From: Candidatus Zambryskiibacteriota bacterium
GTDB taxonomy: Bacteria; Patescibacteriota; Minisyncoccia; Phycocordibacterales; DATDWN01
DNA: 64,000 nucleotides
Assembly: GCA_003173855.1 (NCBI GenBank)
Contig: PPGI01000010.1
Coordinates: forward strand, 148,696-212,695
Reading direction: 5' to 3'
The notes below the pieces were generated by a model, which searched no databases, had not been told where the DNA came from, and saw nothing but the letters and a program-made list of their open reading frames with translations. Of the stretch, positions 52,391 to 62,894 are shown piece after piece (position 1 is the stretch's first letter; every line of letters starts with the position of its first letter). Both the position numbers and the translations under genes were made by a program.

Positions 52391-53353
52391 TTAATTAAGG
52401 TACAGCTCAGCGTTCCGCTTATGTTGCTCAAAAGTTTGGGCATAATGAATTGTCCCATCACGGCTAGAAAGATAATAAAGATATTTTGTTGTAATCGGGT
52501 TAACTGCTGCAAAAAGCGCATCTACTCCTGGATTATCGATAGGCCCAGGCGGGAGACCTTTATATAAGTAAGTATTATAGGGAGAATTTATTTTTAAATC
52601 GTCAGCAGTCAATTGATAAGTATTTTTACCGTTTATGTAAAGAAATGTTGCATCGACTTGAAGTGGCATACCAAGTTGCAAGCGTTTCCATAAAATTCCA
52701 GCAATAATTCTCCTAGACTCTGTTGTTCGGGCTTCATTTTCTAAAATTGAGGCCATTGTGATTATGTCGCCGAGAGATTTTGTTGTTGTAGCAATTCCTG
52801 GAACACTTTTTATTTTTTCGTTAAATGTTTTCTCCATTTTATCAATCAGAACCTCTGGCTTAATTGTCGGAGAGACAAAATATGTATCAGGAAAAAGATA
52901 GCCTTCCTCTTTTTTTGCAATATTTAAAAAGCGTACTTGATTAAAATTAACCAAGTTTTTTTTAAGATAATCTGCAATTTGAGTGCTGTCCCATCCTTCA
53001 GGTATTGTAATTCTTGCTGTTGTTAAGTGAAAGCGGGCATGAACCAATCGATATGCAATATTTATTGGTCCGGCTTTTTCATCGAGCAAATAATCTCCAG
53101 CAATTACTCCCCTCTCGCCTCCTTGTAGAATAACTGCAGTTCGAAACCAAAAAGGCGATCGAATGATATGTAAACTTTCTAAATCGCTTGTTATCTTATC
53201 CAGTGACTCTCCGGAGTAAATTGTAACTACTTGACCCAAAGGAAATTCTTTTGGAACTTCAAAATAATATGAAAGTGCAGCGAATAAAATAAAAAGACCG
53301 GCAGATAGGAAAAGGATTTTTTTATTAGCTTCAAAAAATTTCTTGAATTCCAT
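52391..53353 (-). CDS. mltG: endolytic murein transglycosylase MltG (YceG-like)
   Basis: N-terminal TM, YceG domain with catalytic ILENEAR region. Confidence 0.85.
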   Translation of the reverse strand: MEFKKFFEANKKILFLSAGLFILFAALSYYFEVPKEFPLGQVVTIYSGESLDKITSDLESLHIIRSPFWFRTAVILQGGERGVIAGDYLLDEKAGPINIAYRLVHARFHLTTARITIPEGWDSTQIADYLKKNLVNFNQVRFLNIAKKEEGYLFPDTYFVSPTIKPEVLIDKMEKTFNEKIKSVPGIATTTKSLGDIITMASILENEARTTESRRIIAGILWKRLQLGMPLQVDATFLYINGKNTYQLTADDLKINSPYNTYLYKGLPPGPIDNPGVDALFAAVNPITTKYLYYLSSRDGTIHYAQTFEQHKRNAELYLN

Positions 53354-59548: not shown

Positions 59549-59743
59549 CTACTTCTCTCTCTTTGAGACTCGAAACTTCACGAGACCCATGTTTTTCCTA
59601 GCGAGATCACCAACTGCTTCCATCTCGCATCGCCCCATACCTACAGATTCTCGTGCTCGCGGATCCTCTGTCCTTGCATGGCAAATGCCATTCCGCGTAT
59701 CAAATCTAACTTCCGGATCACACTCGTACTCATAGTTATCCAT
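59549..59743 (-). CDS. hypothetical small protein (64 aa) in GC-richer patch
   Basis: ORF only; local GC elevated. Confidence 0.25.
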   Translation of the reverse strand: MDNYEYECDPEVRFDTRNGICHARTEDPRARESVGMGRCEMEAVGDLARKNMGLVKFRVSKREK

Positions 59744-59804: not shown

Positions 59805-60809
59805 TTATATTTTAAACTCGATCACATCGCCGTCTTGAACTATGTAATCCTTGCCCTCTGTTCGTACGAGACCTTTTTCGCGTGCAGCAGCGTACGATCC
59901 AGCAGAAATTAAATCATTGTAATTTATGACTTCTGCACGAATAAATTTGTCTTTAAAATCGGTATGAATTGCGGTCCCAGCCATTGGTGCATTCCAACCC
60001 TTGGTAATTGTCCAAGCTCGAGTTTCATCAGCTCCAGTTGTAAAGTATGTGATCAAATTTAGAGTTTCGTAACTTTTTTTAATCAAATCATCAAAACCAG
60101 TTTGGAAAACCGGATCAACTATTACATTTGGTTTTGGCATATCTTTCGATATATCAAAAGATATGGATTCAGATGCTTCAGATGTATTTAGTGCATACAA
60201 AATTGGCTTTTCTGTTAGCAAATGCATTCCTTTCAATACGATTTTCTCTTCTGGAGTAAGTTCCACACTGTTTGCAAGCTTGCTATCTTCAAGCGCTAAC
60301 AAAACTTTTTTTAAAACTTGTTCCTCAAAAATTGCATCTTTTTTCCCAGCTTTAACATCCTTTCCTAAATTAGCTAATCTTTTTTTTACAGTTTCGGTAT
60401 CAGCTAAAATAAGTTCAAGATTTATAACCTCAATATCAGATAGTGGATCAACTTTTCCGTGAACATGAATTATGTCATCGTCTTTGAAAACTCGAACCAT
60501 TTCTAATATTGCATCCACTTCACGAATGTTTGAAAGAAATTTATTTCCAAGTCCTTCGCCTTCGCTTGCGCCTTTAACAAGCCCAGCAATGTCTACGAAC
60601 TCTACAACTGCTGGAATTGTTTTTGCTGATCGAGACAAGTCAGAAAGTTTTTGCAATCGATCATCCGGAACAGGAACAATGCCAACCGAAGGATCAATAG
60701 TACAAAATGGATAATTCTCCGCAGGCACAGACTTTTTTGTTAGTGCATTAAATAACGTGGACTTCCCCACGTTTGGCAGCCCCACAATTCCCATAGATAT
60801 ATTGGCCAT
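59805..60809 (-). CDS. ychF: ribosome-binding ATPase YchF (Obg-like ATPase)
   Basis: G1 GLPNVGKST, NxxE-type specificity region, TGS domain C-terminus (YIVQDGDVIEFK). Confidence 0.95.
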   Translation of the reverse strand: MANISMGIVGLPNVGKSTLFNALTKKSVPAENYPFCTIDPSVGIVPVPDDRLQKLSDLSRSAKTIPAVVEFVDIAGLVKGASEGEGLGNKFLSNIREVDAILEMVRVFKDDDIIHVHGKVDPLSDIEVINLELILADTETVKKRLANLGKDVKAGKKDAIFEEQVLKKVLLALEDSKLANSVELTPEEKIVLKGMHLLTEKPILYALNTSEASESISFDISKDMPKPNVIVDPVFQTGFDDLIKKSYETLNLITYFTTGADETRAWTITKGWNAPMAGTAIHTDFKDKFIRAEVINYNDLISAGSYAAAREKGLVRTEGKDYIVQDGDVIEFKI

Positions 60810-60849
60810 TCCTAAAATATGCCTTATTTTAAGCTCATTTTCAAGCTAT

Positions 60850-60878
60850 TTGACAATACTATTTTATCATGATAGTAT
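60850..60878 (+). promoter_or_regulatory. consensus sigma70 promoter (TTGACA-17-TAGTAT) driving GC-rich island
   Basis: -35 60850-60855, -10 60873-60878; AGGAGG 60885-60890; ATG 60897. Confidence 0.55.
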
Positions 60879-60954
60879 TTCTTTAGGAGGTGCCTCATGG
60901 TACTGAACGATCTGACACTGGGAGAAATGCTGGTACCCCACCCTTCTTCCCGAC

Positions 60955-61164
60955 ATGGTGCAGAAGTATGGAGACGGACCATTCAAAGTGGTCGGTCTCA
61001 ATCTCTGGACCAAACAGAACCCGAAGCTGTCAGTCGCTCCCTACAGAGTTACCCTCGAGCTTCCCAATGGAACTCGAGTGGAACTTGCCGGCGAGTGGGT
61101 CAGCCGCACCACACAAGACGACTGCGATATCTATGGCGGACCCTGTATCGGTGCAGACGCGTAA
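60955..61164 (+). CDS. island ORF A, hypothetical (69 aa); frame uncertain
   Basis: best GC3 and composition of three overlapping frames; but SD-ATG at 60897 is in a different frame (60897..61196). Confidence 0.35.
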   Translation: MVQKYGDGPFKVVGLNLWTKQNPKLSVAPYRVTLELPNGTRVELAGEWVSRTTQDDCDIYGGPCIGADA

Positions 61165-61182
61165 CAGTGGGAGTGTTCTTTC

Positions 61183-61268
61183 GGGTGAGTTGTTAACTCG
61201 CCCTCCTACCAAAGTTTTCAAATTAAGATTTATGAATTGAAAGTTTTGGTGGGACGAAATAGTTTCGT
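61183..61268 (+). repeat. structured intercistronic element, copy E1
   Basis: GC hairpin 61183-61203, 17-bp stem 61205-21/61237-53 pairing only with 3 G·U on plus strand, hairpin 61254-68. Confidence 0.7.
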
Positions 61269-61282
61269 CTTGCGGCTTCCCG

Positions 61283-61570
61283 GTGAAAGGTCGAAACGAT
61301 ATCATCGTGACTCCGCTCAGTTTCTTGGAAGAAAATCAAGGCATCAAAGAAGAGCATGTGAAGTACGAGCTTTCGAAACTTCACGGCTGCTCACCGTGCG
61401 ACATCACGATCTCGTTCTCACATGGAGTTCGAGCTCGTCGAGACGGAATTCCCAACAGTCGGGAGTACTACTTCGCTTCAAAGGCTGAAGAAAGAAGGTA
61501 CAAAGCCAGTCGTCGGTACTCACATGGTCTTGATCCGGACATGCCACCGCCGGGATGGATTCCCGATTAG
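61283..61570 (+). CDS. island ORF B, hypothetical (95 aa, GTG start)
   Basis: high GC3; stop 6 nt before E2. Confidence 0.4.
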   Translation: MKGRNDIIVTPLSFLEENQGIKEEHVKYELSKLHGCSPCDITISFSHGVRARRDGIPNSREYYFASKAEERRYKASRRYSHGLDPDMPPPGWIPD

Positions 61571-61576
61571 TTCTTC

Positions 61577-61650
61577 GGGCGAACCTTGTGTTCGCCCTCC
61601 CATCAAAGTTTTCAAAAGGTTGAAAGTTTTGGTGGGACGAATAGTTCGTC
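61577..61650 (+). repeat. structured intercistronic element, copy E2
   Basis: GC hairpin 61577-97 (different sequence, same structure), 17-bp stem 61599-615/61620-36, hairpin 61637-49. Confidence 0.7.
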
Positions 61651-61752
61651 TTGTTCTTTGTGAGGTGAAAAATGTTGTAGCGTTTCAATCCCTTTTTGAA
61701 TCTGACTTCTTTTGACTAAAACCAACAACATCCGAATTAAGAGGAGTGTACA

Positions 61753-62217
61753 ATGCAGAATCTCAAAGACCAACTCCTCCGCAGCGGACTTGTTTCAAAA
61801 GAACAGGTTCAAAAAGCGGAGGACGAACGTCGACAACAGGAAGCGCTGGCCAAGTTCGAGAAGACGTGTGAGCTACGTGACTTCGTCACAGCTTATCCAA
61901 AATTCAAGGACGGGCTTCGTGGACTTCCTCCTGACACGCCAATAACCATTGATCCAGAGCTCGAACAAAAGATGATCTGGGCCAGATGGCCACAGCGTGG
62001 CAGGAAGCTCGAGACAGGATACGGTTCACCGTATCTCGGTACGACTCTCGTTGTACGAATTGACCGACACACTGGCTTGGCACATCGATTCCCGATCGAG
62101 CCAGATCAGACTGGACGTCCAGTCTGGGAAATTGGCAGTAACCAATTTGCTCATTGCGATGTCGCTGTCGTCGAACAGGGCGAGAGAGATGTCGAGATCT
62201 TCGTCAAACTCGTCTGA
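61753..62217 (+). CDS. island ORF C, DUF2058/YaiL-like protein
   Basis: AAGAGGAG SD; N-terminus MQNLKDQLLRSGLVSKEQ resembles YaiL-family start; 154 aa. Confidence 0.5.
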   Translation: MQNLKDQLLRSGLVSKEQVQKAEDERRQQEALAKFEKTCELRDFVTAYPKFKDGLRGLPPDTPITIDPELEQKMIWARWPQRGRKLETGYGSPYLGTTLVVRIDRHTGLAHRFPIEPDQTGRPVWEIGSNQFAHCDVAVVEQGERDVEIFVKLV

Positions 62218-62230
62218 CCCACCTCAACAC

Positions 62231-62290
62231 GGGGAACAACGCGTTCCCCGTCCCATCAAAGTTTTTAATTAGATTGAAAATTTTGGTGGG
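62231..62290 (+). repeat. structured intercistronic element, copy E3
   Basis: GC hairpin 62231-49, 17-bp stem 62252-68/62274-90 with structure-preserving substitutions. Confidence 0.65.
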
Positions 62291-62315
62291 ACAATTAAGT
62301 TCATTGAGGTGACTC

Positions 62316-62561
62316 ATGCGTTTGCAAATGATTTACATTACTGAGTCTATGGGTTCGAATAAGAGTATTGAATTTCGTGACATAGATGACATCAGGAAAG
62401 TGCAGATGGAAATGCATTCGGGCTCACTCAAGTTTTCTGACCCAAGGATTCTTGCAATCGTTCCTGAAAAGTTAGCATTTGAAATTGCACTAGTATTCCA
62501 AAAGGAGTTGAAAATAACAATTTCATGGTCAGCATCGAGCGAGCATGACTTCCAAAAATAG
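62316..62561 (+). CDS. island ORF D, hypothetical (81 aa)
   Basis: GAGGTGA SD 4 nt upstream; followed by strong terminator. Confidence 0.5.
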   Translation: MRLQMIYITESMGSNKSIEFRDIDDIRKVQMEMHSGSLKFSDPRILAIVPEKLAFEIALVFQKELKITISWSASSEHDFQK

Positions 62562-62569
62562 AACCTGAG

Positions 62570-62599
62570 CCCCACGAATCGTTCGTGGGGTTTTTGTTT
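62570..62599 (+). terminator. Rho-independent terminator ending island operon
   Basis: ccccacgaa-tcg-ttcgtgggg 9-bp stem followed by TTTTTGTTT. Confidence 0.8.
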
Positions 62600-62633
62600 A
62601 TAAATTTTACATAAATGAGAAAGGCACCTTTTT

Positions 62634-62894
62634 TCACGGTGCCCTTCGAAGTTGTACACGAGAATGAACAAGTCGTAGTGGCTTTATGACAGATTTCATT
62701 TCGCTGCCAGAGCAAATGTATTCGTGGCTGATTTTTCTTATTGTCTGATCAAGAAATTCAACCGTAATGTACTCAATCTCGAAAAGAGGATCCTCAAGAT
62801 TGATGATCTTGCCTGTCTGCCACTTCTGTTTTCCCTCATCAGTGAAAACATCAACGCTTGCGCCCAGATCAAACTGAACCTGGTAATTTTCCAT
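62634..62894 (-). CDS. hypothetical protein (86 aa)
   Basis: ORF convergent with island; no motif. Confidence 0.35.
   Translation of the reverse strand: MENYQVQFDLGASVDVFTDEGKQKWQTGKIINLEDPLFEIEYITVEFLDQTIRKISHEYICSGSEMKSVIKPLRLVHSRVQLRRAP

Follow-up and report, generated by a model that had tools for sequence, protein, structure and literature searches.

The Patescibacteria (candidate phyla radiation) are ultra-small, uncultured and host-dependent bacteria with tiny genomes, and little is known of the ways in which they acquire accessory genes and express them. In phage T7, hairpins between genes are processed by RNase III, after which the upstream message keeps a protective hairpin at its 3' end. 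BoxA has the consensus GYTCTTTAANA (PMC5725501). Eight of its nucleotides are read by NusB-NusE, with G2, C5 and U6 critical and C6 tolerated, and a double-stranded RNA site adjacent to it has been proposed (PMC3177189). BoxA also shields arrays of clustered regularly interspaced short palindromic repeats (CRISPR), whose transcripts are untranslated, from Rho (PMC7665894), and GTTCTTTGAAAAC is a conserved primer site in the 16S-23S spacer of Mollicutes (PMC4312986). Here we describe a 64,000-nucleotide stretch of a Candidatus Zambryskiibacteriota genome (contig PPGI01000010.1, positions 148,696 to 212,695; hereafter the window, with positions counted from its first letter), in which a GC-rich island beside ychF carries four small open reading frames (ORFs A to D) and a repeated element of three adjoining hairpins associated with a BoxA-like box. 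A preliminary description made from the sequence alone had read this island as a single self-contained operon acquired from elsewhere. We take it for an array of four cassettes, decayed in part, that belongs to a type distributed across Patescibacteria. At roughly even odds (about 0.5) we read it as a promoter-to-terminator array of exchangeable cassettes, in which the hairpin module would work as sense-strand RNA and would also be the point where cassettes are swapped.

Results

Structure of the three-hairpin element

The element, which the preliminary description had missed, is about 85 nt long and follows ORFs A, B and C (61183-61271, 61577-61659 and 62230-62305). A profile search found exactly three copies in the window, all on the plus strand and all in the island; the conserved arm occurs three times against 0.13 expected by chance. 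Its first part, P1, is a GC-rich hairpin whose sequence differs in each copy but whose pairing is always kept. P2 is a conserved hairpin of 17-20 bp (CCCAYCAAAGUUUUYAA, loop, UUGAAARUUUUGGUGGG), and P3 begins with the last GGG of P2 and is followed after 3-4 nt by UGUUCUUU and then by the Shine-Dalgarno sequence (SD) of the next gene. Folding energies are -35 to -41 kcal/mol for the sense strand (z -5.7 to -6.9) and -28 to -29 kcal/mol for the antisense strand. DNA parameters rank the strands in the same order, the top (sense) strand folding better, and on the bottom strand P2 contains a 2x2 A.C/C.A internal loop.

Counts of elements refer to a set of 36 distinct copies defined by nhmmer, a loosened regular expression for P2 having over-called at 74 'elements'. 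A P1 hairpin ends at most 5 nt from the foot of P2 in 30 of 30 distinct flanks, and its stem has at least 8 bp in 26 of them, compared with 2.6% of shuffled flanks and 6.3% of random 45-mers. This hairpin-versus-shuffle statistic was used in place of a covariance model because in roughly one row of four the MAFFT alignment had the 5' half of P1 out of register. Orthologous cassettes show compensatory changes in P1: GGGGAAC/GTTCCCC behind ORF C in the window corresponds to GGGGAGAC/GTCTCCCC in the related locus L043 (L numbers denote loci outside the window), and GGGCGAAC/GTTCGCCC behind ORF B to GGGCGACG/CGTCGCCC in L044. Since P1 differs between copies yet pairs, long-term selection on structure rather than recent copying is indicated.

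RNAalifold recovers P2 with 18 bp, among them many U.G pairs, which on the other strand would be A.C mismatches. The invariance of P2 is partly forced by the search pattern, so that copies found independently, by profile or protein homology, weigh more; these show double compensatory changes (CCUGUC/GACGGG, CCCUUC/GGAGGG and CAGAG/CUCUG) and a terminal loop of 3 to about 60 nt. In L009 (1380-1504, minus strand) this loop holds an extra perfect 12-bp palindrome, CACTTTGATACA/TGTATCAAAGTG, and evidently tolerates large insertions. Orientation relative to the upstream ORF was not discriminating, frames of at least 50 codons being found in 27 and 23 of 29 cases on the two strands, because GC-rich DNA opens frames on both.

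The BoxA-like box

An exact GTTCTTT accompanies 20 of the 36 distinct elements, most often 18 nt after P2 (chance expectation 1.7%). The box consensus is WUGUUCUUUNAR, and an SD and a start codon follow within 10-35 nt. UGUUCUUU coincides with positions 1-8 of BoxA (UGYUCUUU), including G2, C5, U6 and U8, the comparison being with the published consensus, from which that of Patescibacteria may differ. Among 19 aligned exact boxes a U precedes the box in 14 and position 10 is A in 14, while position 9 is variable. The Mollicutes spacer region that holds GTTCTTTGAAAAC is the boxA of those rRNA operons. Lying 3-4 nt after P3 and inside the promoter-terminator unit, the box would fit the location predicted for a leader signal. 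Boxes without hairpins stand in the promoter-proximal leaders of L043 and L011, as also fits a leader signal.

Distribution

An exact-pattern scan of one genome per species, covering 185,579 species, returned 20 loci. The full architecture was present in 12, all from Patescibacteria (Saccharibacteria, Zambryskibacteria, Kaiserbacteria, Sungbacteria and one unclassified); in the remaining eight, P1 and the CCCAC foot are missing, and several of these loci fall within coding sequence. No convincing copy was found outside Patescibacteria among these species. In a metagenome scan 18 of 20 matches were true copies, mostly from small-cell groundwater fractions, and three patterns run against the 2.9 million contigs of IMG/VR gave no true copy. 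Many of the array-bearing contigs come from the Hainich groundwater wells, for which metatranscriptomes exist (bioRxiv 10.1101/2025.05.30.656956). At the gathering score no Rfam family matched the elements in the window or in 35 related loci, and permissive E-values added chance-level matches only. Elsewhere the element occurs singly or in arrays of up to five (arrays of 3-5 copies were found) at a spacing of 0.3-2.2 kb, and these arrays usually lie in patches more GC-rich than their own contig. A literature search on cassette arrays, integrons and intergenic repeats in Patescibacteria yielded no description of the element. We found the array design only in Patescibacteria, and it matches no RNA-family or integron definition tested.

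Cassette boundaries and the site beside ychF

By blastn, window positions 61653-62296 correspond to 2222-2858 of L043 at 75% identity, the match beginning exactly at the G of the box. In L043 a box GTTCCTT comes directly after the promoter and ORF C belongs to the first cassette, whereas in the window it belongs to the third. L042 and L043 share synteny with the window on the opposite flank (DUF5671, ychF), which makes this the same chromosomal site with different content. A chimeric assembly was considered and rejected, as the ORF C cassette adjoins ychF in two independent JGI samples as well. Similarly, window positions 61272-61667 match 1250-1633 of L044 at 71%; there ORF B is full-length and forms the first cassette behind another promoter, with two other cassettes after it. 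In groundwater contigs one and the same cassette follows different upstream cassettes.

Limits of homology fall at the element, starting at its 5' edge (L009 versus L040), ending at its 3' edge (L009 versus L036) or starting inside P1 (L040 versus L031). From these limits it follows that the upstream ORF takes P1 along with it and the downstream ORF takes the spacer, box and leader. An ORF together with its element thus behaves as an exchangeable cassette, and as the module is the only sequence that cassettes have in common it would also be where they are swapped. No homology was detected between ORFs A-D and the ORFs of the first 21 loci.

Seven loci were reached through four ychF relatives (80-82% protein identity). 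Their downstream side is conserved (cupin, DUF5671, leucyl-tRNA synthetase (LeuRS), sigma factor); on the 5' side of ychF the content varies, from a co-directional membrane gene to different divergent unknown ORFs, GC-rich in two cases, or no such genes. None of the seven carries the three-hairpin element. The synteny breakpoint on the 5' side of ychF is a hotspot. YceG, upstream of ychF in relatives (L045-L048), is found here (52394-53353) on the other side, beyond LeuRS and a sigma-like gene; this confirms that the region was rearranged, with the 5' side of ychF as one of the breakpoints.

Composition and anatomy of the island

The preliminary description had reported a GC-rich island at 60850-62605 and taken it as foreign. 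Its GC-richness and its start hold: 300-nt windows from 60850 to 62349 have a GC content of 0.43-0.53, the flanks 0.32-0.38 and the whole window 0.360. Its end does not, since ORF D has a GC content of only 0.38 and the strongly GC-rich part stops near 62350. The largest difference in composition is at third codon positions (GC3), where the reported elevation is found again: 0.60, 0.52 and 0.50 in ORFs A, B and C against 0.20-0.26 in ychF, DUF5671, LeuRS and the receiver (REC) gene. ORF D (0.43) and the minus-strand orf86 (0.41) are intermediate. The contrast in SD use is likewise real: with matches scored in -18..-4 and the first start codon assumed true, an SD match reaches 5 nt in none of the 63 core ORFs, so that the 5-6-nt SDs of the array (ATG 60897 frame, mini-ORF, ORF C and ORF D) stand out. 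This lineage seems to initiate translation largely without SD. The segment is accordingly unlike its host in GC, GC3 and SD use and sits at a synteny breakpoint, and to that extent horizontal acquisition stands as a reading, but not as the acquisition of one operon.

Two small ORFs lie close by. Downstream of the response regulator, orf86 (62634-62894, minus strand) has no Pfam match and no close relatives, and the foreign-looking segment may extend to 62894. Between DUF5671 and ychF, a GC-rich ORF of 64 aa (59549-59743, minus strand) has its own SD and a downstream hairpin and encodes a singleton protein; its place is taken in relatives (L042/L043, L045-L048 and L050) by a 132-aa cupin gene. 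It looks like a second small replacement at the ychF locus. By tblastn, neither a cupin remnant nor the ychF-adjacent ORFs of relatives were found in the window.

The features of the array are collected in Table 1.

Table 1. Features of the cassette array, in window coordinates.
Feature	Position	Strand	Details	nhmmer E
Array promoter	60850-60878	+	-35 TTGACA 60850-55, TG extension, -10 TAGTAT 60873-78	
Cassette 1	60885-61196	+	SD AGGAGGTG 60885-92; ATG 60897 (99-codon R/S-rich frame); ORF A 60955-61164 (69 aa)	
5' box of element 1	61175-61181	+	GTTCTTT directly before P1	
Element 1	61183-61271	+	P1 61183-61203, P2 61205-61253, P3 61251-61271	4e-15
Cassette 2	61272-61570	+	ORF B remnant (listed ORF 61283-61570, 95 aa)	
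Element 2	61570-61659	+	complete: P1 61577-97, P2 61599-61636, P3 61634-52	5e-17
Cassette 3	61653-62217	+	BoxA-like box, SD GAGGTG 61662-67, mini-ORF, leader, SD, ORF C 61753-62217 (154 aa)	
Element 3	62230-62311	+	P1 62230-50, P2 62252-90, box variant GTTCATT 62299-62305, SD GAGGTG 62306-11	9e-17
Last cassette	62316-62561	+	ORF D, 81 aa, GC 0.38, GC3 0.43, no element after it	
Intrinsic terminator	62567-62593	+	12-bp stem, closes the array	

The near-consensus promoter, the canonical SD at 60885-60892 and the terminator are all present as the preliminary description had them, the promoter with a TG extension in addition. A promoter scan by itself is at chance level (4 found, 3.7 expected); the syntenic relative L043 has a TTGACA-17-TATAAT promoter at the same relative position, after a shared 'ccttattttaagc' flank. 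The -10 lies only 6 nt from the SD, and the true start site is therefore uncertain.

All four reported plus-strand ORFs exist, but two are not intact. The strong SD of cassette 1 feeds ATG 60897, which opens a non-coding-looking frame, and the protein-like ORF A (60955) lies in another frame without an SD; as the SD serves the former frame, ORF A is probably frameshifted. A one-base indel near a C-run at about 60936 would fuse the ATG 60897 frame and ORF A into a protein of about 88 aa, and the break could be either a pseudogene or an assembly error. Neither product occurs in the protein collection searched. ORF B lacks the first 40 or so residues, as well as the leader, of its 135-aa homologues; homology to these begins at 61272, and element 1 has no 3' box. 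Element 2 has a 5' box GTTCTTC (61570-76), the G of which is the final base of the TAG stop of ORF B, and a BoxA-like GTTCTTT at 61653-59, a few nt after P3 and before the next SD. Element 3 has no clear P3.

The leader of the ORF C cassette contains a mini-ORF, ATG TTG TAG (61672-80), with its own SD (GAGGTG). The mini-ORF itself is identical in the corresponding segment of L043 (2233-2250), within the 75%-identical orthologous cassette, and may be a start-stop regulatory ORF.

Cargo proteins and neighbouring genes

The cargo proteins of the cassettes are, by the database matches, apparently ORFans. The earlier remark that none of the products is recognisable is borne out, no known family matching them. 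The ORF C family comprises four significant clusters (E<=1e-5) among 1.84 billion representatives, and the AlphaFold model of ORF C, from an alignment of three sequences, has a mean predicted local distance difference test score of 61.6, too weak for a fold search. ORF D is a singleton cluster whose only Pfam match is sub-threshold. Across all arrays, 31 cassette ORFs were compared with Pfam and PHROGs: a single one contains a solid Pfam domain (MOSC), the others give only weak hints of a zinc ribbon, a receiver or an RNA-polymerase alpha-CTD, and two match one PHROGs family of unknown function. An NCBIfam alignment scan of the window ORFs was swamped by ABC-transporter families and uninformative.

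Immediate neighbours of the array are ychF on one side and orf86, the REC gene and its histidine kinase on the other. A TrmB-family regulator of about 250 aa borders the array start in L002, L008, L009/L036, L012, L020 and L032, which belong to different Patescibacteria classes. TrmB is the commonest neighbour, at seven loci, among 144 neighbouring ORFs in 22 loci, and could be a platform component or merely a conserved hotspot; the window has no TrmB homologue. In L008 (two copies), L009 and L040 a segment of 150-270 nt, 75-89% conserved, lies inside different cassettes and has an open frame antisense to the array ('MKKS[FL]LTSSRKRRSG...'). A second repeat, a small RNA and an antisense gene are candidate explanations for it.

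Discussion

A model of the cassette array

According to the reading that we favour, each cassette would consist of a short leader starting with UGUUCUUU, a strong SD, one small orphan ORF and a 3' module made up of P1, kept in structure, P2, kept in sequence, and P3. The module would act on the sense strand, most likely as RNA. P1 and P2 would cap the 3' end of the upstream cistron, providing insulation, stabilisation or processing, and P3 with UGUUCUUU would be a site of the boxB-boxA type that loads NusB and NusE (S10). RNA polymerase could then read through the next GC-rich, foreign and poorly host-adapted cistron without being stopped by Rho. Swapping of cassettes at the module might proceed by homologous recombination after DNA uptake or by means of a site-specific enzyme.

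Several points weigh against this reading. The box is missing from 14 of the 36 elements, and the match to BoxA amounts to eight U-rich nucleotides, with consensus positions 9-11 loosely kept; the consensus compared is moreover the published one, and that of Patescibacteria may not be UGUUCUUU. The promoter-proximal TTCTTT of the window, between the -10 and the SD, is probably not transcribed. NusB and Rho were not seen among the window ORFs, which is uninformative for a 64-kb piece. A near-identical P2 implies a specific binding partner, for which the model offers no candidate. The boundary with L043 runs exactly from box to box and agrees better with a site-specific crossover at a 7-nt core than with recombination of the RecA type. 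A few copies carry an A.C mismatch on the sense strand (CCUACC/GGCGGG), and the strand argument for sense-strand action, though strong, is therefore not absolute.

Alternative explanations

The most tenable alternative, which we nevertheless think unlikely, is that the element is a DNA recombination site analogous to attC, its folded single strand being recognised by a recombinase acting in trans (Xer-type tyrosine, serine or HUH) with the crossover at GTTCTTT, so that cassettes are excised and captured site-specifically downstream of the resident promoter. The layout resembles that of an integron: co-oriented cassettes of an orphan ORF and a structured site stand behind one promoter, in an order that varies between relatives and with an anomalous composition. 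The boundary of the ORF C cassette, which coincides with the box's G, the loss of the 5' part of ORF B precisely where P3 meets the box, the direct GTTCTTT copies that flank some elements, the box without hairpins at the promoter junction of L043, which recalls attI, and the variable terminal loop of P2, which recalls the variable terminal structure of attC, all speak for such a site. Against it, Pfam revealed no integrase, resolvase or transposase among 60 window ORFs and no Phage_integrase, tblastn with Xer and serine-recombinase queries was negative in the window, and no recombinase recurs near the arrays of the 22 loci among the top 25 families listed for their 144 neighbouring ORFs. Neither RYYYAAC nor GTTRRRY occurs on either strand at 60800-62700; the boxes are direct and not inverted repeats; the sense strand folds better than the bottom strand, the reverse of attC; and the box is independently explained as BoxA. 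Identity with an integron proper was rejected for want of an integrase in the window and of attC core motifs. The sense-strand RNA module and an attC-like site are not mutually exclusive, and it is conceivable, though we rather doubt it, that Patescibacteria own an integrase-independent platform for cassette capture, functionally comparable to integrons, in which a three-hairpin, top-strand equivalent of attC recombines at GTTCTTT and cassettes bring their own BoxA, so as to be expressed whatever the resident promoter.

Improbable in our view is that the arrays are fragments of a mobile element specific to Patescibacteria (a plasmid, prophage or integrative element), the modules being its intergenic regulatory signals and the chromosomal arrays its integrated or decaying remnants and no platform for capture. 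In L003/L041 (JBBTQD010000010) a large serine recombinase of 492 aa lies beside a tRNA gene, and a GC-rich cassette that bears the element is about 1 kb away; some cassettes thus sit on an integrative element. Foreign composition and SD use in several hosts, the decay of two of the four window cassettes, and P2 and P3 sequences nearly identical in contigs assigned to different classes point the same way. Such an origin is at odds with the lack of any copy in the IMG/VR contigs under three patterns, with cargo that has no informative PHROG match, with arrays at several different housekeeping sites that lack recombinase, replication and structural genes, and with a cassette order that differs among close relatives at one site.

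That the element is a selfish small repeat spreading in intergenic DNA, comparable to repetitive extragenic palindromes (REP) and bacterial interspersed mosaic elements (BIME), to Correia elements or to miniature inverted-repeat transposable elements, with its position between ORFs incidental, is very improbable. The element does form an imperfect palindrome that lies, within operons, in 3' untranslated sequence, the direct GTTCTTT copies around some elements could be target duplications, and copies within one contig family are nearly identical; yet all three copies in the window lie in the island and none in some 60 other intergenic regions, copies elsewhere cluster in GC-rich arrays, P1 varies while keeping its pairing, and no Y1/RAYT-type gene was seen in the limited view given by the top 25 neighbour families.

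The single acquisition of one operon from a proteobacterium, as first proposed, would account for the foreign composition, the promoter and terminator and a weak DUF2058 match of ORF C, but leaves the repeated element unexplained, is already contradicted by homologues of ORFs B and C in different arrays with different neighbours, and can hardly be credited. What had been seen as one self-contained operon is made up of cassettes that are exchangeable separately, and two of these have decayed. The proteobacterial source is likewise unsupported, as the DUF2058 match is sub-threshold and spans 31 residues, the N-terminal helix only, protein homology searches found no proteobacterial homologues, and the only ORF C homologue whose contig was fetched (P0002) lies in the syntenic ychF context of L042/L043. 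On whether the segment is ancestral at this position the evidence is mixed: an orthologue of ORF C does occur syntenically beside ychF in these two loci, but there as the first cassette and with another partner.

Significance and comparison with known systems

P2 and the box together provide a sequence-defined marker with which an accessory gene pool can be located in Patescibacteria genomes and metagenomes. The pool comprises numerous small orphan proteins, many of them hinting at a zinc ribbon or a receiver, and these likely matter for the symbiotic lifestyle. Two candidate mechanisms also come into view: antitermination by Nus factors, through which foreign protein-coding genes would be expressed one cistron at a time, and an exchange of cassettes that needs no integron integrase. 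If true, either would extend a well-studied paradigm, BoxA or the integron, into a major uncultured lineage.

The array shares with T7 its conserved intercistronic hairpins in what is presumably a polycistronic transcript. The RNase III sites of T7 are however single hairpins with an internal loop, and have no conserved block like P2 or the box. REP and BIME of enterobacteria and the Correia elements of Neisseria are transcribed intergenic palindromes within operons, as the present element would be, and are able to stabilise the mRNA upstream of them or to serve as RNase III targets. They occur genome-wide in hundreds of copies, whereas the present element is confined to foreign cassette arrays (three copies in 64 kb), has additional hairpins, ends in a BoxA-like tail and marks off units that can be exchanged.

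Among integrons and CALIN (attC clusters without an integrase), the likeness extends from the single upstream promoter and the co-oriented, mostly promoterless small orphan ORFs with an imperfect-palindrome repeat, to a cassette order that varies among relatives, a composition unlike the host and a terminal loop of variable length in the repeat. The array differs in having neither IntI nor R''/R' cores (RYYYAAC...GTTRRRY), in an element of three adjoining hairpins where attC is one bulged hairpin, in a short motif that is a direct repeat, in the top (sense) strand being the better folder, and in its restriction to Patescibacteria.

With boxB-boxA, as known from ribosomal RNA operons (rrn), from the nut sites of lambdoid phages and, for BoxA, from upstream of CRISPR arrays and suhB, it shares UGUUCUUU as positions 1-8 (UGYUCUUU), the placing of the box 3-4 nt after a hairpin, which is the order of the rrn leader, its location in a putative 5' leader 10-35 nt from the start codon, and its recurrence within one long predicted transcription unit, as with the leader and spacer BoxA of rrn. 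Unlike in those systems, the putative box of the array is repeated before every cistron of a protein-coding array, is loose at positions 9-11, and is joined to P1 and P2, which have no counterpart in rrn or nut.

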